Assembly (NCBI GenBank): GCA_028286605.1
Contig: JAQBRE010000002.1
Span: 326,011-390,010 of the forward strand
Origin: Parcubacteria group bacterium
GTDB lineage: Bacteria; Patescibacteriota; Minisyncoccia; Phycocordibacterales; Phycocordibacteraceae
Direction of reading: 5' to 3'
Length of the DNA: 64,000 bases
Below, one piece after another: positions 3,818 to 35,295 of this stretch (positions within the stretch are counted from its first letter, which is position 1; the number at the start of each line of letters is the position of its first letter). The position numbers and the translations under genes were made by a program. The notes under the pieces were generated by a model, which was not told the origin of the DNA, made no database searches, and saw nothing but the letters and a program-made list of their open reading frames with translations.

Positions 3818-4984
3818 ATGCAGGCACGACGCATCATTCTTCCCGCACTCTTGATACTGATGCTTCCGGCCTTTGCGAATGCCGCGACATTCGCCGAACA
3901 GAAGACGCTCGTTCTTTCTGCGGCGCCTCCGGATAACACGTACCTTGCCGGCGCAAGTGTAACGGTGAGTGCTCCATTGCCTGCTGATCTTTCAGCAGCA
4001 GGCGGCACTGTAACGACATATTCGCCGATTGGAGGTGATGCGCTTATTGCAGGCGGTACGGTAGATTTGCAGCAGGCCGTTGCAGGCGACGTGCGCGCGG
4101 TTGGCGGACGCATCATGATTGATGCGCCGGTGGCCGGCGACGTAGTCGCCGGTGGAGCAACGATAAACGTTTCTGCGCCAGCGCGTGATATGCGCCTGTT
4201 CGGCGTGAACGTGCAGGCAACGGGCGGTGCGTACGGACCGGTCACTATCTACGGGGCAGACGTAACGCTTGCGGGAAATTATGACGGTGATGTGGAGGTA
4301 ATCGCTTCAGACCACTTCACGGTTGGCCCGAATACGCACATTCATGGCGTGCTGAAATACAATGCACCTCAGCAGGCTGAGATTCCTGCATCATCCATCG
4401 TGGATGGGGGAGTAACGTACACGGGCTCCTACGCATACGTACCGACGAATGCAGAAGCGCAGAAGTTCGCGATTGCCGGCGCGGGAGTATTCTTCATTGT
4501 GCGGGCGCTTGCGGTGATGATAGCGGCCGGCCTCCTGGCCGGCCTGTTCCCGCAATTCAGCGAAGCGCTCGCCACACGCATATTCACGCGCCGCTACGCA
4601 CGCACGAGCCTGCTCGCACTTCTTGGCTTCGGCGTGCTTATCGCCACGCCCGTTCTTATTCTGCTTCTCACGGTTTCATTCGTGGGCGGCGGCCTCGCAT
4701 TACTGCTCGGTTCTGGGTATGTCTTCCTTATTTTCCTTTCCTACATATACACGGGCATTCTTGCGGGAGGCGCGCTTCGTCAACTAATTACGAAGCGATC
4801 CGCTACGCTCATCTCCTGGCAGGATGCTCTCGCCGGCACTCTCGTATTTTTCATACTCGGTAGCATTCCCTACTTAGGCGGCATCATCACGCTCATCGCA
4901 GTGTGTCTTACGCTTGGCTTCATGGTCTCTGGTCTATACTTATTCACATTCCGCAGGGATACCTCGTGGCAGGAATCACTCTAA
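3818..4984 (+). CDS. Membrane protein with N-terminal signal peptide, extracytoplasmic beta-solenoid-like G-D-V repeat region and C-terminal polytopic membrane domain
   Basis: Signal peptide LLILMLPAFANA. Repeats AGDVRAVGG / AGDVVAGG / GADVTLAG. Four C-terminal hydrophobic helices. Confidence 0.45.
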   Translation: MQARRIILPALLILMLPAFANAATFAEQKTLVLSAAPPDNTYLAGASVTVSAPLPADLSAAGGTVTTYSPIGGDALIAGGTVDLQQAVAGDVRAVGGRIMIDAPVAGDVVAGGATINVSAPARDMRLFGVNVQATGGAYGPVTIYGADVTLAGNYDGDVEVIASDHFTVGPNTHIHGVLKYNAPQQAEIPASSIVDGGVTYTGSYAYVPTNAEAQKFAIAGAGVFFIVRALAVMIAAGLLAGLFPQFSEALATRIFTRRYARTSLLALLGFGVLIATPVLILLLTVSFVGGGLALLLGSGYVFLIFLSYIYTGILAGGALRQLITKRSATLISWQDALAGTLVFFILGSIPYLGGIITLIAVCLTLGFMVSGLYLFTFRRDTSWQESL

Positions 4985-4996
4985 TTTATCTACTCT

Positions 4997-5470
4997 ATGG
5001 CACTACCAACCATCGGTTCTATCGCTCCCGATTTTACGCTTGAAGATCAAGATGGCGTAGAACATTCGCTTTCGCAATATAAAGGGAAATACGTACTCGT
5101 CTATTTCTATCCGAAAGACGACACTCCTGGCTGCACGAAAGAAGCCTGCTTGCTTGGCGAATATATGCCGGATTTCTCGAAGAGCGATGCGGTGATACTC
5201 GGCATATCTCCGGACACTGTTAAGAGCCATAAGAAGTTCGCAGAGAAGTACGGACTGAAGTTTACATTGCTCGCAGACCCGGAAAAGAAATCAATCAGCG
5301 CATACGATGTGTGGGGCCTGAAGAAGTTCATGGGCAAAGAATACGAAGGAGTATTCCGTACGTCGTTCCTGGTTGCGCCAGATGGAACCGTAGCTAAGGT
5401 GTACGAAAATGTGAAGCCAGAAAAGCACGCAGAGGAAGTGCTCGCAGACCTGCAGGAACTTCACGGATAA
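4997..5470 (+). CDS. bcp: Thiol peroxidase / peroxiredoxin Bcp
   Basis: FYPKDDTPGCTKEAC peroxiredoxin active-site motif. 157 aa. Confidence 0.85.
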   Translation: MALPTIGSIAPDFTLEDQDGVEHSLSQYKGKYVLVYFYPKDDTPGCTKEACLLGEYMPDFSKSDAVILGISPDTVKSHKKFAEKYGLKFTLLADPEKKSISAYDVWGLKKFMGKEYEGVFRTSFLVAPDGTVAKVYENVKPEKHAEEVLADLQELHG

Positions 5471-5472
5471 TC

Positions 5473-6141
5473 ATGGCTGAAGGGAAGTTCGAAGAACGAA
5501 AAGCGCGAGCGAAGAAGATGCTTGCGTACTTGAAGAAGGCGTATCCGGAACCGAAAACGGAACTCACCTACAAGACGCCGATACAGCTCGTTGCGAGCGT
5601 TATGCTTTCGGCACAGTCTACCGACAAGCGGGTGAATCTCGTTACCGATACGCTATGGAAAAAATATAAGACGGTGGACGATCTTGCGAATGCGGACCTG
5701 GCTGAATTCACGAAAGAGATTTCAAGCATCACATTTTATAGAAATAAGGCGAAGGCGATTATCGGCACCGCGAAGATGATCCGTAATGAGTTCGGCGGAA
5801 AGATTCCCAAAACGGAAAAGGAACTCGTGCTGCTTCCTGGCATCGCGTATAAATCTGCGCACGTGATCATGGGTGAGTTGCACGGCATATACGAAGGCAT
5901 ACCGACCGACACGCACGTGCGGCGTTTCGCGCTCCGTTTCGATCTTACCGACAGCAAAGACCTCACGAAGATTTCGAAAGATCTCGAAGCATTGATTCAG
6001 AAGTCAGATTGGAAATACGTGAACAACGGTCTGGTGTTGTATGGACGCTATGTATGTAGGGCGTTACCGCACCCGTGCGAAGACCATCCGCTCACCAAGA
6101 TCTGGCCGCCTGCCGCGCATCGCTGGCCCAAGGCGAAATAG
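5473..6141 (+). CDS. nth: Endonuclease III family DNA glycosylase (HhH-GPD)
   Basis: FYRNKAK, LPGIAYKSAHVIM (HhH) and DTHV motifs. Only 2 of the usual 4 Fe-S cluster cysteines are present at the C-terminus. Confidence 0.75.
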   Translation: MAEGKFEERKARAKKMLAYLKKAYPEPKTELTYKTPIQLVASVMLSAQSTDKRVNLVTDTLWKKYKTVDDLANADLAEFTKEISSITFYRNKAKAIIGTAKMIRNEFGGKIPKTEKELVLLPGIAYKSAHVIMGELHGIYEGIPTDTHVRRFALRFDLTDSKDLTKISKDLEALIQKSDWKYVNNGLVLYGRYVCRALPHPCEDHPLTKIWPPAAHRWPKAK

Positions 6142-24381: not shown

Positions 24382-24402
24382 TTAACAATCTTATAGTTTG
24401 TA

Positions 24403-24432
24403 AGAAAAGCGTCCGGTGGACGCTTTTCTTAC
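24403..24432 (+). terminator. Rho-independent terminator after nrdB
   Basis: aagaaaagcgtccgg-tggacgcttttctta. Confidence 0.6.
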
Positions 24433-24448
24433 GTTATAATTTAATATA

Positions 24449-25111
24449 ATGTTCTCGAACTTCGAGCTACCGCAAAAAGTAATAGATATAACTGCAAGCA
24501 TCATAATCTTCGTAGCAATGCACGTGCCACTTTTGAGTCATGCTTTGCTTGCGGGACCAACTATTAATGAGCCTCAATATACTCAAATTGCTCATACACA
24601 GCCTGTAATTATTCCAACGCAATCAATTCAACCTGTTCAGCAAAAATCTCCCTCAGGTATGTCCAGCTCAACACCACAACAGGTTGGAGAGTTTACTGTA
24701 GTTGTAAACTGCAAAGACTTTAATCCTGTAAGTGCTATTATCTTAAAAAATGAATCGATAGTACAAACGATTTCTATTCTAGGTGCAGGAATAACGGGAA
24801 TTCATATGTGTGTACCAGCAGAAGTAAAGGATATTAATTTTGATAGCTATCCTGACTTTATGGTTCCATCTGATAATGGTAGTGGAGGTGCCACTTATGA
24901 TTATTGGCTATTTAGCTCAACAACACAGCAATTTTCGTGTCCAGAGGGAAATTATAGATGTGGTTTGATGAATCCAGAATTTGATTCAACGGCTAAAACT
25001 GTTATTAGTGTAGAACCGACTGGGGCAGGTCATGTCACTACAGACACTTATCGAATTCTTAATGGAAGGTTAGTTCTCTTGAAAGAGGTAAAGGAGAATG
25101 ATTACGAATAA
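24449..25111 (+). CDS. Hypothetical secreted/anchored Cys-containing protein (220 aa) encoded in a low-GC (~38%) islet
   Basis: N-terminal hydrophobic anchor and a Gln/Pro-rich linker. A TATAAT box lies 12 nt upstream. Local GC is far below the flanks. Confidence 0.5.
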   Translation: MFSNFELPQKVIDITASIIIFVAMHVPLLSHALLAGPTINEPQYTQIAHTQPVIIPTQSIQPVQQKSPSGMSSSTPQQVGEFTVVVNCKDFNPVSAIILKNESIVQTISILGAGITGIHMCVPAEVKDINFDSYPDFMVPSDNGSGGATYDYWLFSSTTQQFSCPEGNYRCGLMNPEFDSTAKTVISVEPTGAGHVTTDTYRILNGRLVLLKEVKENDYE

Positions 25112-25153
25112 TTTCGAAGCACGCCCGATTTATTTGTAAGCGAAACGCTCGCG

Positions 25154-26131
25154 GTGCGTCATACGTACTATAAAGGTATGGGTATATCACTTGGTTTCAT
25201 GAACATGAAGAAAATAATCTATGGATTCGTGGCTGTAGGAATGCTGCTGATCTCAGCGCCTGCATATGCGCAAACGGCTCCGAATACAGGCACAGGCAGT
25301 AGCGGCACATCAAGCAACTGGTCAGGCTATGCGGCTGCAGGAGGAAATTACACGGGCGTTAACGGAAGCTGGACGATACCGGCGGCATCTCCGATTTCGG
25401 GAACGAAGCTTTCAGCGGACGCCGCATGGGTGGGTATCGGCGGCCTCACCACGAAGGACCTGATCCAGGCAGGCACGGAATCAGAGGTACAGAACGGTTC
25501 GGTTATTTATCAGGCGTGGTATGAGGCACTTCCTGCTGGGCAAGTGCAGGTTCCGGTGACTGTTCATGCGGGCGATAAAGTGACCGTTTCTTTGAACGAA
25601 ACCTCAACGAATGTCTGGCATCTTATATTTACGAATACGACGACGGGAAATGCATACCAGACGGATATCAATTACAGTTCCTCGCAGTCTTCCGCAGACT
25701 GGATAGAGGAAATGCCGGTCGGGCAGTTCGGTACTACGTCTTCGTATGTCCCGCTCGATATGTTCGGTACGATCCAGTTCAGTAATGCGTACGACACGAC
25801 GAACGGAAACGTGCAGACACTTACGAGTGGAGGAGCGCTCCCGCTTACGATGATGAATACGAATCGTCAGGCGCTCGCTACACCTTCAAGTATCGGTACG
25901 GACGCAGAAAGCTTCAGCGTGGCGCGTACGAATGCGACGGTTTCATCGACAGAAGTATCGCAAGTAGTGCAGAGCAGTCGTGGTTTCCGTCGCGGTGGCG
26001 AGGGCGTGACAAGCTATACGCCTGGAACACGCTATGTACAGCACACGCAGCAGGTCATCATGCGACAAACGCAGCAGATCATAACCCGTTCGGGCAATAC
26101 GATAAGCGTTCAGTTTTATTTGAGTCGCTAG
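25154..26131 (+). CDS. Peptidase G1 (eqolisin / scytalidoglutamic peptidase) family homolog, secreted
   Basis: Motifs SSNWSGYAAAG, AAWVGIGG, DLIQAGTE (catalytic Gln), AWYEA, SADWIEE (catalytic Glu), in the order and spacing of fungal eqolisins. Signal peptide from MKKIIYGF (the ATG at 25205 is the likely true start). Confidence 0.7.
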   Translation: MRHTYYKGMGISLGFMNMKKIIYGFVAVGMLLISAPAYAQTAPNTGTGSSGTSSNWSGYAAAGGNYTGVNGSWTIPAASPISGTKLSADAAWVGIGGLTTKDLIQAGTESEVQNGSVIYQAWYEALPAGQVQVPVTVHAGDKVTVSLNETSTNVWHLIFTNTTTGNAYQTDINYSSSQSSADWIEEMPVGQFGTTSSYVPLDMFGTIQFSNAYDTTNGNVQTLTSGGALPLTMMNTNRQALATPSSIGTDAESFSVARTNATVSSTEVSQVVQSSRGFRRGGEGVTSYTPGTRYVQHTQQVIMRQTQQIITRSGNTISVQFYLSR

Positions 26132-26159: not shown

Positions 26160-26513
26160 GGACCGATCCAGACGACCGCTCCAAGATGCCGGAAGGCCTC
26201 AGGGGAGGAAAGTCCGAACACAGGCCGGCGGTTTCCGCCGGCAGAAGGGTAGCGGGTAACGCCCGTCCGCAGTAATGCGCGAGGTGCGAGCAGAGACGCT
26301 TTAGCGGAAACGCGAGAGCATCTGATTTCGGTCAGATGAATCCACTTGGTGACTTGTGGGGTGAAACGGCTAAATCCTTACTTCTGTGCAAGGCCGTGCC
26401 GGTAGTCTTTCGGGACATGCCGGAGCGCCGCTCGAGCCGGCTGGTAACAGCCGGCCCAGATAGATGGTCGTCCTTGCGCAAGCAGGACAGAATTCGGCTT
26501 ATCGGATCGGTTC
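26160..26513 (+). ncRNA. rnpB: RNase P RNA (bacterial type A)
   Basis: P4 halves GAGGAAAGTCCGAACAC and ACAGAATTCGGCTTATC, GGTAACGCC, GGTGAAA, GCTGGTAACAG. The 10 bp P1 pairs 26160-26169 with 26504-26513. Confidence 0.85.
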
Positions 26514-26524
26514 AAAAACATGAA

Positions 26525-26549
26525 GAAACCTACCCTCTGGGTGGGTTTC
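26525..26549 (+). terminator. Terminator after rnpB
   Basis: gaaacctaccc-tct-gggtgggtttc hairpin, then ttcgctttt. Confidence 0.55.
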
Positions 26550-26656
26550 TTCGCTTTTATATGCTCTGGTTTTCTATCCACATAGTTAGTATTGAGGTCT
26601 CGTACAGAACGTATACTTAAGAGGTTCTCTTACTAAGGGTTAATCCCGTAATTACG

Positions 26657-29116
26657 GTGTACAACAATATGCAAACAGAAACTGCTAAAACCGCGGTATC
26701 TGTCGCGCCTCACCCTAAGCGCTTTTCGTTCGACACGCTAGCCATATGGGCCCTCACGCTCACGATAGCTGTCGCAGCGATAGCGTTTATTCCGGTCGCG
26801 ACGATTCCGTTCCTTTATACGAAAGTGTCGATCATCGCCATCGGCGGTCTGATCGCACTCGTCCTCTTCGTGCTGGCACGCCTCACGCGTGGCAACATCA
26901 TCGTGCCTCCGATCGCACTGATCGGTGCGCTTTGGCTGGTGCCGCTTGCCTATGCGCTTTCGATGCTCTTCTCGGGTGTCGGAATCATGGCAGGCGCCTT
27001 CGGTATCGAGCTTGAACCGGATACGTTCGGCTTCATCCTCATACTGGCATCGTTCGCCACGCTTATCGCGTTGGTGTTCCGCCGCACGAATCATTACCGC
27101 ACCTTCTTTAAAGTCGGTGGGGTATTGCTCGCAATCACGCTTCTTTCGGAAGTTATCTTCGTTATCGTAGGTAAGCTTTCGCCAAGCACCGTCTCGCCGA
27201 CCGCGAACCTGATCGGATCCTTCACGGACCTCGGCATGGTGGTCGGTCTCGGCTTGATTTGCGCGCTCCTCGCTATTCGCTTCCTTGCGCTTACCTCGCG
27301 TGTTCGTATCGCGACGTGGGTGTTCGGAGCACTCGCGCTGTTCGTTCTTGCGTTGGTGAATGCGAAGCTTATCTGGATCCTCGTAACGCTCGTTGCGCTC
27401 GGCCTCTTCATCGAATCGATCATGAAGCGCCGTGGCCAGCCAGAAGATGAAGATCTTGATGGCGTGGCGACGCTTGAAGTGCCTACGGGTCGCGAAGCGA
27501 CCATGGGCGAATCACGCGCTCTTGCGCCTGCGCTCATAACTATCATCGTCGCCCTGTTCTTCATCATCGGCGGTAATACGATAGGCGCGGCGCTCTCGAA
27601 CGCGCTCGGTACTAACTTCATCGACGTGCATCCGTCTTGGCAGTCCACGCTCGCCGTTGGCAGCCACACGTACGCTTCTTCACCGCTCTTCGGATCGGGT
27701 CCTGGCACGTTCGGCGAACAGTGGCTCAAGTACCGTGATCCTTCGTTGAACGACACGATCTTCTGGAACGTAGACTTCAACTCAGGCATCGGCATGATCC
27801 CGACGTCATTCGTAACGACCGGTATTCTCGGCGTTCTTGCCTGGCTCGTCTTCATCGGCCTGTTCCTGTTCATCGGTATCCGCGCACTGCTATTCCGCAC
27901 GCCGGAAGACCCGTATGCTCGTTTCGTTTCTATCGCTTCGTTCGTCGGCAGCATCTATCTCTTCGTCGCGATGATCTTCTCGACGCCGGGGCCATTGGTA
28001 TTGCTCGTAGGTTTCTTCATGGTCGGCCTCTTCGTCTCGTCGCTTCGCTATAGCGGAACGCGTCGTGAATGGGGAATCGTCTTCGCGAAGAATCCGCGCG
28101 TCGGCTTCGTCATCGTGTTCGGTCTCACTATCCTGCTTCTGGCATCGGTGGTTGCGGCATACACGATCACTGAACGCTATCTCGCAGATGTTGCGTATGC
28201 AGACGGTTCTGCAGCGCTCGCGAAGGGTGACCTTACCGGAGCAGCGACCGATGTGAATCGCGCGCTTCTCTTCGCAAAGAACGATCGTACCTATCAGCTC
28301 GCTGCCGCTATCGGCATCGCGCAGATGAATAAGATCGCTGCAGACACGACGCTCGCACCGAGCGACGCCCAGCAGCAGTTCCAGGCAGCGCTTTCTTCCA
28401 GCATCCAGGCTGCGACGACGGCAGTGAACCTGGACGGAAAGAACTACCAGAACTGGGAAGCGCTCGCGTCTGTGTACCAGACCGTGGTGCCGCTCAATCT
28501 GAGCGGGGCATACGATAAGGCGAAGGACGCATACACGCATGCGATCGCGCTTAATCCTTCCAGCCCGGTTCTCCCGTACTCGCTCGCGCAGCTCGAAATC
28601 GCGCAGAAGAGTTACACAGCAGCGGAGACTGATCTCACGAATGCGATCAATCTGAAGCATGACTACACCGCCGCTATATTCCTCTTCTCGCAGCTCGAAG
28701 TGCAGCAAGGCAAGACGAAGGAAGCATTGCAGGCTGCAGAAGCTGCAGCAGTCTTCGCTCCGACTGATCCGAACGTACAGTTCCAGCTCGGCATACTTCG
28801 CTCGGGCAATGGAGACACGGACGGTTCTATCGTAGCGCTTATGGCAGCAGTGAAGGCGAATCCGCAGTATGCGAACGCGCTCTTCTTCCTCGCCGTTGAT
28901 TACGCGACTAAGAACGACTTTGCTGATGCGATTACGCAGCTCAATGCGATCGCAGCACTCTCACCAGCGAATGCGACCGCCGTAGCTCCAGACCTCGCGC
29001 AGCTCAAGGCTGGTAAGAATCCGTTCCCGCCTTCACGCCTCGGCGCGCTCGGCATCCCTCAGACTCCGATTCCAGACGCTACCAAGGCTCCTGCAACCGC
29101 AGCGAACCCAGGGTAG
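26657..29116 (+). CDS. Polytopic membrane protein (O-antigen-ligase/Wzy_C-like region) with C-terminal TPR repeats
   Basis: More than 10 TM helices, an extracytoplasmic loop GSGPGTFGEQW, and a C-terminal ~300 aa of TPR-like repeats. Adjacent to murJ. Confidence 0.5.
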   Translation: MYNNMQTETAKTAVSVAPHPKRFSFDTLAIWALTLTIAVAAIAFIPVATIPFLYTKVSIIAIGGLIALVLFVLARLTRGNIIVPPIALIGALWLVPLAYALSMLFSGVGIMAGAFGIELEPDTFGFILILASFATLIALVFRRTNHYRTFFKVGGVLLAITLLSEVIFVIVGKLSPSTVSPTANLIGSFTDLGMVVGLGLICALLAIRFLALTSRVRIATWVFGALALFVLALVNAKLIWILVTLVALGLFIESIMKRRGQPEDEDLDGVATLEVPTGREATMGESRALAPALITIIVALFFIIGGNTIGAALSNALGTNFIDVHPSWQSTLAVGSHTYASSPLFGSGPGTFGEQWLKYRDPSLNDTIFWNVDFNSGIGMIPTSFVTTGILGVLAWLVFIGLFLFIGIRALLFRTPEDPYARFVSIASFVGSIYLFVAMIFSTPGPLVLLVGFFMVGLFVSSLRYSGTRREWGIVFAKNPRVGFVIVFGLTILLLASVVAAYTITERYLADVAYADGSAALAKGDLTGAATDVNRALLFAKNDRTYQLAAAIGIAQMNKIAADTTLAPSDAQQQFQAALSSSIQAATTAVNLDGKNYQNWEALASVYQTVVPLNLSGAYDKAKDAYTHAIALNPSSPVLPYSLAQLEIAQKSYTAAETDLTNAINLKHDYTAAIFLFSQLEVQQGKTKEALQAAEAAAVFAPTDPNVQFQLGILRSGNGDTDGSIVALMAAVKANPQYANALFFLAVDYATKNDFADAITQLNAIAALSPANATAVAPDLAQLKAGKNPFPPSRLGALGIPQTPIPDATKAPATAANPG

Positions 29117-33435: not shown

Positions 33436-35295
33436 ATGGCTGATGAGAAGCTCCTAGAGCAGATACTTAAAGAGCGCGGTGCGGGAAAATCTGAAGAAGC
33501 CCTCCATGAGGAACTGAAGAAAGATGGGTGGCCTGAAGCGGACATTTACGGCGCATTTGCGGTGGCGAAGTTGCGCAGCAACCCCATGACCGCATCACGT
33601 CTTGCGCCCCCTGCGGTAGCGCCGCGCCGATCTAAGGGCAATCTGGTTTTCCAGATACTCATCGTTATCGTCCTGCTGGTTTCGGCACCGGCAGTATTCG
33701 GCTTCGTTACGGGTACGGTGCTTCCTGCGATCACCGCTCAGGCGAACGGTACCGCGACCAGCACGAGCCTCGCTACGCTCGGCCAATCCATCTTCGGTAT
33801 CGTGCCGCTCATTCCGGTAAAAGGTTCAGGTACGGGCTCGATCTTTTCGGCTCCTGCATCGAAATCAAGCGGATCGAGCGCGGCGGTATCGCACTCAACC
33901 ATAACTACGCAACCGACCGCGGCCACTCCTGCGCCTAACGCGGGGGCACCGATAACGACACAGACGCAAACCACTGTGCCGGTCGTAACAACGACGCAGA
34001 CCCCATTTTCTGTCCCTGATCAAGCGCCTGTCGTTACAGTTCCAAATCCTGTTGTTCCTGTTACTCCAGTCGTCACACCGCCCGTTGTACCGGTTGTACC
34101 AGTAACTCCTGTAACCCCGGTCGTACCCGTGGTGCCGGTCGTTCCTCCTGTCGCATCGCTCGCAACGGCGACAGATACGCCAAGCTTGCTTAAGGCATTG
34201 AAGGCGGCAAAGCCCGGCGACACTATTACGCTCGCTTCGAATACCTATTCAGGGCTTGGCACTATTGCAAACCTGAATTTCTCTTCACCCGTAACTGTTA
34301 CGTCGTACGATACGAGCCACAAGGCGATTCTTACGAATTTCAGCATGATGCGCGTTAACGGTCTAAGCTTCACCAACCTCGAATTCAGCAACCAAACTCC
34401 TACAGCATTTACGGTGAACACCTCGAGCTCGCAGAATATACGATTTGATTCCGATTATATCCACGGCTCGCTGGATGGTAATTCTGATGATGATGGCGGA
34501 GGTCTCGGCTTCCTTGATACCTCAAACGTAACGGTTTCGAATTCAACTCTTGAACAGCTTCGCCAGGGTATCAGCAACGGCGCTAATGTTACGCCAAGCG
34601 TTTCGAACATAACGATCACGGGAAATACTATAAAGGGAATGGAGAAGAGCGGTATGGTATTTGCAGGCGCAAGTAATGTTACGGTTACAGGAAACTCAAT
34701 AAGCGATATTGAGGTAGTACCTCCCGATCACCCGGATGGCATGCAGTTCTTCACGACCGGTACGACCGTTGCTGCGCATGACATTACCGTTGCGAATAAT
34801 GTGATCGTTAAAGGAAAGGGGCAGGCGGCGCAGGGCATTTTCTTCCGGGATCAGGTTGGAACGCTGCCATATCAGAATGTGCACATAGACAACAACCTTA
34901 TTATTGATACGGGATATGGCGGCGTGTATGCGGAAGGAGTCGGCTCAGGTGAATTGAGTGGTAACTTCCTTACCTCTGAACCAGGCTCAACAAACAATAC
35001 CTTCTTCTTGGTTCAGAACGGAGGTACTATTGCCGCAACTAATAACACTGCAACGGCAATCAGCTTTGATAATGTCACGAATCTTACGCAGTCGGGTAAC
35101 GCGACCACTACTCCGGTAACAGACCAAGGCTTGCAGGCGATGCGCGACTGGTCACAGAGCCATCCCGCAAGCGCAGCGCAGCTCGCGCCTTTCATCGGAG
35201 CGCTCAGCATCGCTGATTCCCATAGCATGCTTGCTTCGGCCGAAGCAGCCCTCGCCTCTGCACTGCACTATCTTTTGGGTCTGTTGCGATTGTAA
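33436..35295 (+). CDS. Single-pass membrane protein with a ~45 aa cytoplasmic N-domain, TM, Pro/Thr/Val-rich linker and extracellular right-handed parallel beta-helix domain (paralog of 44384..46483)
   Basis: The N-domain EKLLEQILKERGAGKSEEALHEELKKDGWPEADIYGAFAVAK aligns with the N-terminus of the 44384..46483 protein. TM NLVFQILIVIVLLVSAPAVFGF. Linker PVVPVTPVVTPPVVPVVP. PbH1-like repeats (ITITGNTI, VTVTGNSI, ITVANNVI). Confidence 0.6.
   Translation: MADEKLLEQILKERGAGKSEEALHEELKKDGWPEADIYGAFAVAKLRSNPMTASRLAPPAVAPRRSKGNLVFQILIVIVLLVSAPAVFGFVTGTVLPAITAQANGTATSTSLATLGQSIFGIVPLIPVKGSGTGSIFSAPASKSSGSSAAVSHSTITTQPTAATPAPNAGAPITTQTQTTVPVVTTTQTPFSVPDQAPVVTVPNPVVPVTPVVTPPVVPVVPVTPVTPVVPVVPVVPPVASLATATDTPSLLKALKAAKPGDTITLASNTYSGLGTIANLNFSSPVTVTSYDTSHKAILTNFSMMRVNGLSFTNLEFSNQTPTAFTVNTSSSQNIRFDSDYIHGSLDGNSDDDGGGLGFLDTSNVTVSNSTLEQLRQGISNGANVTPSVSNITITGNTIKGMEKSGMVFAGASNVTVTGNSISDIEVVPPDHPDGMQFFTTGTTVAAHDITVANNVIVKGKGQAAQGIFFRDQVGTLPYQNVHIDNNLIIDTGYGGVYAEGVGSGELSGNFLTSEPGSTNNTFFLVQNGGTIAATNNTATAISFDNVTNLTQSGNATTTPVTDQGLQAMRDWSQSHPASAAQLAPFIGALSIADSHSMLASAEAALASALHYLLGLLRL

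Follow-up and report, generated by a model that had tools for sequence, protein, structure and literature searches.

The peptidase gene and its predicted precursor

The window, a stretch of 64,000 nucleotides, contains an uninterrupted open reading frame (ORF) at positions 25154..26131 (+ strand, as are all features below), with 325 codons from a GTG and a TAG stop codon at 26129-26131. We confirmed that this gene encodes an eqolisin-type (family G1) glutamic peptidase that is predicted to be secreted and has both catalytic residues intact. The gene is located on a 532,551-bp contig of a Parcubacteria MAG with a small genome, the kind of host that had been assumed from the sequence. Residues are counted from GTG 25154 unless M18 numbering is indicated.

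The GTG at 25154 is merely the longest-ORF start. In-frame alternative starts are found at ATG 25178, ATG 25199 and ATG 25205. Based on homolog N-termini and the shape of the signal peptide, we favour ATG 25199 or 25205 (MNMKK.../MKK...) as the biologically most plausible. The mature peptidase is identical for every candidate start. The identical protein is already present in public databases as 'Peptidase family [Parcubacteria group bacterium]': the deposited form (P0001) begins at ATG 25178 and has 317 aa, and an exact look-up with the 325-aa GTG-start product gave no match. The sole indexed contig for the deposited form (L001), a Logan fragment of 1,974 bp, comes from the same locus and gave no further information.

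A predicted Sec-type signal peptide, MKKIIYGFVAVGMLLISAPAYA, spans positions 25205..25270, with probable cleavage at AYA|Q after Ala39. It holds the single hydrophobic segment of the whole peptidase (Kyte-Doolittle maximum of 2.33 at residues 4-18 in M18 numbering, with an AF2 helix at 5-16), and a P-A-[YF]-A motif is kept in homologs at the predicted cleavage site. The peptidase contains zero Cys and thus no lipobox. This signal-peptide-like segment with its predicted AxA site agrees with the initial annotation, which had described the protein as secreted.

Fungal eqolisins are typically pre-pro precursors from which a basic N-terminal prosegment is removed autocatalytically at acid pH. These prosegments are rich in positive charge (PMC6154417). 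In the gene described here, an uncharged linker of 13 aa (QTAPNTGTGSSGT, 25271..25309) is all that stands between the predicted signal peptide and the catalytic domain, which starts with SSNWSGY. Judged by its sequence, this linker has neither the length nor the charge of a basic prosegment of the fungal type. Similarly, in 165 homologs whose N-terminus is short, the median length of the post-signal linker is 15 aa and it contains 0.31 K+R on average; a basic N-terminal prosegment of the fungal type is absent from the peptidase and its clade. This absence concerns the zymogen architecture and not membership in G1.

The catalytic domain (residues 53-258, 25310..25927), delimited by Pfam, AF2 and Foldseek as a Peptidase_A4/eqolisin beta-sandwich, has a pI of 4.19. 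It is followed by a C-terminal tail of 67 aa (residues 259-325, 25928..26128) with a pI of 11.3.

Fold and catalytic dyad

The initial annotation had proposed an eqolisin homolog, and profile searches bear this out: PF01828.24 (Peptidase_A4) matches residues 54-248 over profile positions 1-197 of 206 with E=1.2e-34 and 120.1 bits, compared to a gathering score of 22.3. A sequence search of the PDB returned aspergilloglutamic peptidase (2.4e-9) and scytalidoglutamic peptidase (4.4e-9). The AF2 model is all-beta with a domain pLDDT mostly >90, and in this model the peptidase has the eqolisin fold, two antiparallel beta-sheets with a concave cleft. The best five PDB matches of the model in Foldseek (2ifw, 2ifr, 1s2b, 1y43 and 3trs) are all SGP or AGP, with TM 0.83-0.87 and rmsd 2.5-3.0 A. 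A superposition of the kind suggested earlier gives TM 0.86 for 2ifw_A (E=1e-13, rmsd 2.5 A) and 0.87 for 1y43_B. Legume lectins were found among the weak Foldseek matches.

All five eqolisin motifs quoted from the translation are present and in order, far beyond chance: SSNWSG (53-58), AAWVGIGG (90-97), LIQAGTE (103-109), AWYEA (121-125) and DWIEE (182-186). Across 120 homologs, SxNWxGY, WVGIGG, LIQxGT, AWYE.LP and SAEWIxE are invariant or nearly so. The segment YQAWYEAL (119-126) matches the conserved YDAWYEWY segment described for SGP Y64-Y71 (PMC6154417), with Y119, A121 and W122 97% and E124 100% conserved in the same 120 homologs.

Both residues of the catalytic dyad align as had been proposed. 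The catalytic Gln105 (codon CAG, 25466..25468) corresponds in the alignment to SGP Q53, AGP heavy-chain Q24 and pepG1 Q117; the catalytic Gln of these enzymes is numbered Q53, Q133 and Q117, respectively. It is invariant in 120 homologs, in 75 homologs and in the taxon-labelled set. The catalytic Glu186 (codon GAA, 25709..25711) corresponds to SGP E136, pepG1 E199 and AGP E219. Because both HMMER and MAFFT open a gap at this point, the match of Glu186 to SGP E136 rests on the ungapped ADWIEEM/AEFIIED register together with invariance: Glu186 is invariant in 120 homologs, while its neighbour Glu185 varies (E, Q or L in relatives). The two dyad residues are separated by 81 residues, compared to 83 in SGP and 82 in pepG1.

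One position differs from the archetype. Gly96 (25439..25441) occupies the position of SGP Asp43, giving AWVGIGG instead of AWVGIDG in the alignments. Without exception, the Patescibacteria/Chloroflexota clade has Gly here; a relative from Actinomycetes retains Asp. SGP with the D43A mutation retains only about 20% activity, and G43 is found in fungal, bacterial and archaeal eqolisins and was judged acceptable (PMC6154417). Accordingly, Gly in place of Asp43 does not disqualify the protein from G1.

The Gly is also one of the points that could be read in favour of a homolog that binds but does not cleave, a lectin- or glucanase-like beta-sandwich. MEROPS G1 includes such non-peptidase homologs. 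The eqolisin fold does resemble concanavalin-A-like lectins and glucanases (PMC6154417), in line with the weak lectin matches of our model. Nevertheless, by definition non-peptidase homologs have lost one or both residues of the dyad (PMC3009609), and here both are retained. Furthermore, the near invariance of the dyad and its surrounding motifs across 120 homologs is the pattern expected under selection for catalysis. We therefore regard a non-catalytic role as very unlikely.

Relatives and origin of the gene

G1 peptidases were long considered fungal, and the initial annotation called them overwhelmingly so, with bacterial members rare. This fits the 2010 MEROPS census, in which 60 of 66 G1 ORFs came from Ascomycetes (PMC3009609), but not present data. 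An exhaustive search with the peptidase returned 6,031 clusters (50% identity). Of these, 2,949 have E<=1e-10, and all of the 2,949 are nearer to the peptidase than the fungal archetypes, which would score around E=1e-5 at the same library size. Close relatives are found in MAGs of Patescibacteria, Chloroflexota, Acidobacteriota and Actinomycetes, including orthologs 61-62% identical in other Parcubacteria MAGs, and some are named 'G1 family glutamic endopeptidase' at NCBI. The names of cluster members added almost no taxonomy. The first characterised bacterial G1 peptidase, pepG1, was published as early as 2010 (PMC3009609).

G1 peptidases are thus common in uncultured soil bacteria, and the peptidase is an ordinary new member of its family, set apart solely by its basic C-terminal tail. 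With relatives in several phyla, other Patescibacteria among them, its presence in a small-genome bacterium can no longer be called unexpected.

The gene had also been suggested to result from horizontal acquisition. As described before, it lies downstream of a low-GC islet and itself has host-like GC: GC is 0.37-0.39 directly upstream (24400-25199) compared to 0.52-0.55 in the peptidase gene. Its GC3 of 0.56 compares to 0.61+/-0.06 in the 27 other genes of the window, and its codon-usage score of -1.145 to -1.081+/-0.105 in the same genes, within 1 SD. The flanking genes include core genes (nrdAB, rnpB, murJ and lepA). On composition, the peptidase gene shows no sign of recent or inter-domain transfer.

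Three observations could nonetheless be read as traces of a recent acquisition, possibly from fungi. First, the adjoining ORF at 24449-25111 is compositionally foreign, with a GC3 of 0.27, >5 SD below the other genes. Second, the gene neighbourhood is not conserved among relatives: when eight window neighbours were compared by phmmer with the ORFs of 17 related loci, only the peptidase was shared, except in L001, which is from the same genome, and an all-vs-all clustering recovered only shadow ORFs and ubiquitous response regulators and ABC transporters. Third, the family is patchily common to Patescibacteria and Chloroflexota. Against these observations stand the native composition of the gene itself and the identity of its nearest relatives, which are bacterial (44-62% identical) and include other Parcubacteria and Patescibacteria, compared to 26-29% for the fungal SGP. 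Prokaryotic and fungal eqolisins separate in published trees (PMC3009609, PMC6154417), and in our neighbour-joining tree, which carries no support values, SGP is found on a long branch. Taken together, a recent acquisition appears extremely improbable, while the patchy sharing between Patescibacteria and Chloroflexota leaves room for an older exchange from bacterium to bacterium.

As the neighbourhood is not conserved, we dropped any operon-based functional inference, and rejected the upstream XAC2610-like ORF as a cognate inhibitor of the peptidase for the same reason. Counts from promoter and terminator scans did not exceed those of shuffled sequence, and we use them for description only.

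The C-terminal tail and the proposed function

In the clade, a basic C-terminal tail appears to take the place of the basic N-terminal prosegment, an architecture that, judged from the sequences, is mildly new. In the 165 short-N-terminus homologs, tails have a median length of 62 aa and contain 6.8 K+R compared to 2.3 D+E, with 6.4 aromatics. The median pI in the clade is 4.1 for the catalytic domain and 11.5 for the tail.

Two elements can be distinguished in the tail. The first is a conserved motif, SRGFRRGGEGVTSYTP (25976..26023), for which the clade consensus is GRW[SR]R[TG]GxG[VI]QG[YF]TP. The peptidase deviates from this consensus (GFRRGGEGVTSYTP). The pLDDT of the motif is <50 in the AF2 model of the peptidase and 71-77 in that of the homolog P0039, where the motif shows two isolated beta-bridges. 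The second is a terminal beta-hairpin (26066..26125, ...IITRSGNTISVQFYLS), predicted with low confidence (AF2 strands 288-296 and 299-307 in M18 numbering, pLDDT 56-68) and semi-conserved in close relatives as [FS]GNxx[RK]x[EQ]Fx[LF]xR.

Neither a hydrophobic stretch that could serve as an anchor nor LPXTG was found in a scan of the tail. As Cys is absent as well, anchoring of the peptidase by sortase, as a lipoprotein or through the membrane was discarded. A six-frame regex scan found the tail motif in the peptidase gene alone within the 64-kb window. A tail-only profile run against 5.8 billion proteins gave two matches, both C-terminal fragments of G1 proteins, at the low sensitivity of such a short motif. 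We accordingly set aside the idea of the tail as a portable module found in other protein families, this being a weak negative given the short motif.

The tail may have a role in latency or in retention at the cell surface. More specifically, the clade may have relocated its regulatory element from the N-terminus to the C-terminus of the eqolisin. There it could serve latency or act as a chaperone, or it could tether the enzyme electrostatically to the surface of an ultrasmall epibiotic cell; we put this forward as speculative and, as it stands, unlikely. Alternatively, the tail could have no part in latency or anchoring and be a disordered spacer, with one more edge strand or hairpin stabilising the sandwich. 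Most of it is indeed predicted to be disordered, its length and sequence vary widely among homologs, the Chloroflexota relatives do without it, and the tail-only profile placed it on no other protein family. Such a spacer would hardly be expected to keep Arg280 of the tail motif in 91% of 120 homologs despite low-complexity surroundings, nor to show a strong and consistent basic and aromatic bias facing an acidic domain. We consider the spacer possible but doubtful.

Overall, the observations are very probably best explained by a secreted, catalytically competent G1 endopeptidase, native to a small-genome member of the Parcubacteria (Patescibacteria/CPR), with a basic C-terminal tail and no basic N-terminal prosegment. 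The protein would be exported by Sec and lose its signal peptide by cleavage at AYA|Q, after which its acidic beta-sandwich domain would hydrolyse peptide bonds by the eqolisin mechanism. This mechanism has been established in SGP and AGP, and we carry it over by homology: Glu186 would act as the general base that activates water, and Gln105 would help to polarise and stabilise the transition state. The likeliest role would be extracellular breakdown of proteins and peptides, which would feed an organism of limited biosynthetic capacity or act on the surfaces of its host or neighbours. Peptide scavenging, as had been proposed, is plausible in this respect. The basic tail might play at the C-terminus the part of the basic fungal propeptide and keep the acidic enzyme latent or stable, or it might tether the enzyme electrostatically to the anionic cell envelope. 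We found no literature linking glutamic peptidases to Patescibacteria biology.

The family assignment itself carries little weight: the protein already has a database entry under a name derived from Pfam, and G1 peptidases were known from bacteria by 2010. Of more consequence, the belief that eqolisins are essentially fungal is outdated, with about 2,950 nearer clusters, all unstudied. The G1 clade of Patescibacteria and soil bacteria comprises hundreds to thousands of clusters, all uncharacterised, and its precursor architecture, in which a conserved basic C-terminal tail is present and the N-terminal prosegment is missing, would be a cheap and tractable target. The tail could teach how bacteria without an outer membrane keep glutamic peptidases latent or localised, and the clade could show what extracellular proteolysis contributes to the CPR lifestyle. 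To our knowledge, all characterised eqolisins act at pH 2-5. If the tail were a C-terminal tether, the peptidase could act at the host-cell interface, perhaps at a pH above that of any known eqolisin.

Among known systems, a distant likeness is seen to neprosin (family G3) and to B. subtilis YncM / CPAVM1. These share a beta-sandwich (Foldseek E=1e-4 to 1e-5, TM 0.4-0.6) at 10-12% identity and do not belong to the same family; neprosin relies on a pair of Glu residues, and its N-terminal prodomain is large and all-beta (PMC9343461).

The fungal G1 archetypes SGP (SCP-B; 1S2B, 2IFW) and AGP (1Y43, 3TRS) belong to the same Pfam family as the peptidase and share with its model the two-sheet beta-sandwich (TM 0.83-0.87, rmsd 2.5-3.0 A), as well as the Gln/Glu dyad at similar spacing (81 residues, and 83 in SGP). 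They are secreted, as is predicted for the peptidase, and the domain is acidic in both (pI 4.19, compared to 4.05 for SGP residues 3-192). Unlike SGP and AGP, the peptidase comes from a bacterial host (25-29% identity), has no disulfides (zero Cys) and has Gly where SGP has Asp43. It also has a basic 67-aa C-terminal tail in place of a basic N-terminal prosegment.

Another known system is pepG1 of Alicyclobacillus sp. DSM 15716 (PMC3009609), which is likewise bacterial, secreted (export is predicted for our peptidase) and free of disulfide bridges. The spacing of its dyad (Q117/E199) is 82 residues compared to 81, and its mature N-terminus is found just ahead of SNWxGY, as predicted for the peptidase. 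In pepG1, about 28 residues separate the predicted signal cleavage (residue 33) from the mature N-terminus (N62), compared to 13 uncharged residues here. The source of pepG1 is an acidophilic thermophile and its optimum is pH 3-4 at 60 C (PMC3009609), whereas our host is an uncultured Parcubacteria MAG. A C-terminal tail is not mentioned for pepG1 in PMC3009609, where the term 'C-terminal' occurs 0 times.

Finally, the G1/Peptidase_A4 proteins of Chloroflexota MAGs have catalytic domains 42-52% identical to that of the peptidase, with the same dyad motifs and the same G for D43. Unlike the peptidase, they are extended at the N-terminus by an acidic stretch of 170-220 aa, and their short tail (about 25-50 aa) lacks the GRWSRTG motif.

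Family assignment and catalytic dyad

The peptidase gene is an uninterrupted ORF on the forward strand (25154-26131, 325 codons from a GTG, TAG stop). The initial annotation had read it as an eqolisin (family G1 glutamic peptidase), and this identity is correct, with the Pfam, structural superposition and dyad alignment checks all positive. The eqolisin motifs that it quoted are all found in the translation, in the order claimed, and the protein matches Pfam PF01828 (Peptidase_A4) with 120.1 bits (E=1.2e-34; gathering score 22.3) over profile positions 1-197 of 206. This match is far beyond chance. The only significant PDB sequence matches are eqolisins, namely the two fungal archetypes aspergilloglutamic peptidase (AGP, heavy chain, 2.4e-9) and scytalidoglutamic peptidase (SGP, 4.4e-9). 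No NCBIfam model matches the protein.

An AlphaFold2 model computed from a 75-sequence alignment is all-beta, with domain pLDDT mostly above 90. The five top Foldseek matches in the PDB are all SGP or AGP, with TM 0.83-0.87 (2ifw_A: E=1e-13, TM 0.86, rmsd 2.5 Å; 1y43_B: TM 0.87). Next, and far weaker, come YncM/CPAVM1, neprosin and, after them, legume lectins.

In the HMMER alignments, counted residue by residue, Gln105 (all residues are numbered from the GTG) corresponds to SGP Gln53 and AGP heavy-chain Gln24. For the catalytic Glu, alignment alone is ambiguous because HMMER and MAFFT each place a gap beside the Glu-Glu pair E185/E186. Read without a gap, ADWIEEM/AEFIIED pairs E186 with SGP E136, and relatives carry E, Q or L at position 185 while position 186 is invariant; we therefore assign E186 as the catalytic residue, so that Q105/E186 aligns with the SGP dyad Q53/E136. 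The spacing from Gln to Glu is 81 residues, compared to 83 in SGP and 82 in pepG1, the Alicyclobacillus enzyme with dyad Q117/E199 (PMC3009609). Across 120 homologs, conservation is complete or above 90% for Q105, E186 and the nearby blocks (SxNWxGY, WVGIGG, DLIQxGT, YxAWYE.LP and SSAEWIxE.P).

The position of SGP Asp43 (AWVGIDG) is occupied by Gly96, as it is by Gly across the Patescibacteria/Chloroflexota clade, while a more distant Actinomycetes relative keeps the Asp. The SGP D43A mutant retains about 20% of activity, and G43, known from fungal, bacterial and archaeal eqolisins, is deemed acceptable (PMC6154417).

By homology, the protein is a glutamic endopeptidase of family G1; Glu186 would be the water-activating general base and Gln105 its partner, a mechanism established in SGP and AGP (PMC9343461, PMC6154417). 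It is a new, so far uncharacterised member of a known family. All characterised eqolisins are, to our knowledge, active at pH 2-5.

Relatives and origin of the gene

An identical protein of 317 aa is public as P0001 ('MAG: Peptidase family [Parcubacteria group bacterium]'), encoded on a contig of 532,551 bp. A word-indexed search returned 1,676 homologs, the best 120 of which all fall below E=1e-56; some bear the NCBI name 'G1 family glutamic endopeptidase [Chloroflexota bacterium]'. When 1.84 billion representatives of 50%-identity clusters were searched exhaustively, 6,031 clusters matched at E<=1e-3; of these, 2,949 reached E<=1e-10 and 329 reached E<=1e-30. With the query, SGP and AGP each reach about 40 bits, roughly E=1e-5 at that library size, so the 2,949 clusters would all be nearer to it than the fungal archetypes are.

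Relatives in species-representative genomes include Patescibacteria (among them two Candidatus Doudnabacteria), many Chloroflexota, an Acidobacteriaceae and an Actinomycetes MAG. Catalytic-domain identity to the query is 44-57% for Patescibacteria and small uncultured genomes, 42-52% for Chloroflexota, 45% for the Acidobacteriaceae, 35% for the Actinomycetes and 29% for SGP. A neighbour-joining tree without support values, indicative only, places the query among the small-genome sequences with a Chloroflexota clade adjoining and SGP on a long branch. One Chloroflexia MAG locus (L006) has two G1 paralogs within about 4 kb on opposite strands (318-1787, reverse; 4128-5687, forward), 42% and 52% identical to the query catalytic domain.

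With 6,031 matching clusters and relatives in several bacterial phyla, the supposed rarity of bacterial G1 peptidases does not hold. The 'overwhelmingly fungal' picture reflects the MEROPS 9.1 census, in which 60 of 66 G1 ORFs came from Ascomycetes (PMC3009609). A bacterial member, pepG1, was purified in 2010 and is optimally active at pH 3-4 and 60 °C and insensitive to pepstatin (PMC3009609). Beyond fungi, eqolisins are known from bacteria and archaea, and the prokaryotic sequences form clusters apart from the fungal ones (PMC6154417).

The gene is compositionally native, since its GC3 (0.56 vs 0.61±0.06) and synonymous-codon log-likelihood (-1.145 vs -1.081±0.105) match those of the 27 other window genes. 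A low-GC islet does lie upstream, as described initially (0.37-0.39 at 24400-25199 vs 0.52-0.55 in the gene; 0.53 for the whole window). The horizontal origin that had been considered is opposed by this composition, by the core-gene surroundings and by orthologs at 61-62% identity in other Parcubacteria MAGs. Nothing here supports a recent transfer or one between domains; an ancient exchange between soil phyla is conceivable.

Gene neighbourhood

Upstream lie the core genes groEL, lemA, an M48 peptidase gene, a DsbA-like gene, nrdA and nrdB; downstream are RNase P RNA, a TPR-bearing membrane protein gene, murJ and lepA. None of the window neighbours travels with the peptidase in 17 related loci; when the ORFs of those loci are clustered all-vs-all, the only neighbours that recur are ubiquitous response regulators and ABC transporters. 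The peptidase gene looks like a stand-alone unit.

The bacterial class A RNase P RNA gene (rnpB, 26160-26517, forward; RF00010, 118 bits) begins 28 nt past the peptidase stop. In a scan whose counts do not exceed those of shuffled sequence, terminator-like hairpins were found after nrdB (24399-24433) and after rnpB (26521-26553) and none between peptidase and rnpB. Co-transcription of the two by read-through is possible.

The ORF directly upstream of the peptidase (24449-25111, forward, 220 aa) is strongly foreign in composition, unlike the peptidase gene: its GC is 0.38, its GC3 0.27 vs 0.61±0.06, and its codon score lies 3.6 SD under the mean. Its product combines a hydrophobic segment at the N-terminus and a Q/P/S-rich linker with an XAC2610-related domain at the C-terminus (NCBIfam NF047539, E=1.1e-18); that family is named for a Xanthomonas type IV secretion immunity protein. 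Against 5.8 billion proteins it matches nothing beyond itself ('hypothetical protein JWM39_434'), and it was not found beside G1 peptidases of other genomes. This is probably an orphan gene that was inserted recently.

An 819-aa protein (26657-29116, forward) has C-terminal TPR repeats (TPR_16, TPR_2, TPR_19 and others) and, read by eye from the translation, many hydrophobic, apparently membrane-spanning segments, which have no Pfam match; given its position just upstream of murJ, it may be an envelope-biogenesis protein. Right after a tRNA-Arg gene, a 619-aa protein (33436-35295, forward) with right-handed beta-helix repeats (PF13229, E=8.7e-16) may be one more protein of this CPR genome that is secreted or sits at the cell surface.

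Predicted export and the basic C-terminal tail

The peptidase start codon is ambiguous among four in-frame candidates on the forward strand: GTG 25154 (longest ORF), ATG 25178 (deposited), ATG 25199 and ATG 25205. We favour one of the last two on the basis of homolog N-termini and signal-peptide shape; no convincing, well-placed Shine-Dalgarno was found upstream of any of the four. Hydrophobicity is confined to one N-terminal segment, MKKIIYGFVAVGMLLISAPAYA (next residue Q), in which an n-region, an h-region and an AxA site are arranged as in a Sec signal peptide. Cys is absent from the protein, hence neither lipobox nor disulfides, and there is neither LPXTG nor a C-terminal hydrophobic stretch. 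These features point to Sec-dependent secretion, and the exported enzyme could degrade extracellular proteins and peptides for a metabolically reduced CPR bacterium.

Only 13 uncharged residues separate the predicted cleavage site from SSNWSGY. The catalytic domain (residues 53-258) is acidic, its pI of 4.19 being close to that of SGP (4.05 for residues 3-192); past it, the last 67 residues (259-325) reach pI 11.3. This C-terminal tail is the one non-standard feature of the protein.

Over 209 homologs, the median pI is 4.1 for the catalytic domain and 11.5 for the tail. Among the 165 homologs whose N-terminus is short, the linker after the signal peptide has a median length of 15 aa and contains on average 0.31 K+R; the tail, taken as the region past the conserved FSVxR domain end, has a median of 62 aa (at least 40 aa in 78%), with means of 6.8 K+R vs 2.3 D+E and 6.4 aromatic residues. 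The otherwise variable tail contains a conserved motif, GRW[SR]R[TG]GxG[VI]QG[YF]TP, of which the query variant is SRGFRRGGEGVTSYTP; Arg280 within it is kept in 91% of homologs. The tail appears specific to the family, as a tail-only profile search, of low sensitivity for so short a motif, matched G1 peptidase fragments only.

AlphaFold2 leaves the motif of the query disordered (pLDDT <50), and of the tail only a terminal beta-hairpin scores higher (56-68). The model of P0039, a homolog with the canonical motif, has pLDDT 71-77 and two isolated beta-bridges in the motif region within an otherwise disordered tail, suggesting that the motif packs against the domain. Speculatively, the basic tail might be the C-terminal counterpart of the basic propeptide of fungal enzymes and serve the acidic domain in latency or stabilisation; an equally speculative alternative is an electrostatic tether to the anionic envelope.

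An 818-aa homolog (P0259) carries several NTF2-like matches (TcaA_5th, SnoaL_4, ARC6-like IMS) ahead of its peptidase domain. Unlike the query, Chloroflexota relatives (P0069, P0077, P0092, P0095, P0096, P0104, P0112, P0116, P0119) bear an acidic N-terminal extension of 170-220 aa, and Chloroflexota tails are short and lack the GRW[SR]R[TG] motif. The extension has no Pfam match and could be another sort of prodomain or a targeting domain. The precursor architecture of the large bacterial clade to which the query belongs is distinctive and, as far as could be found, apparently undescribed.
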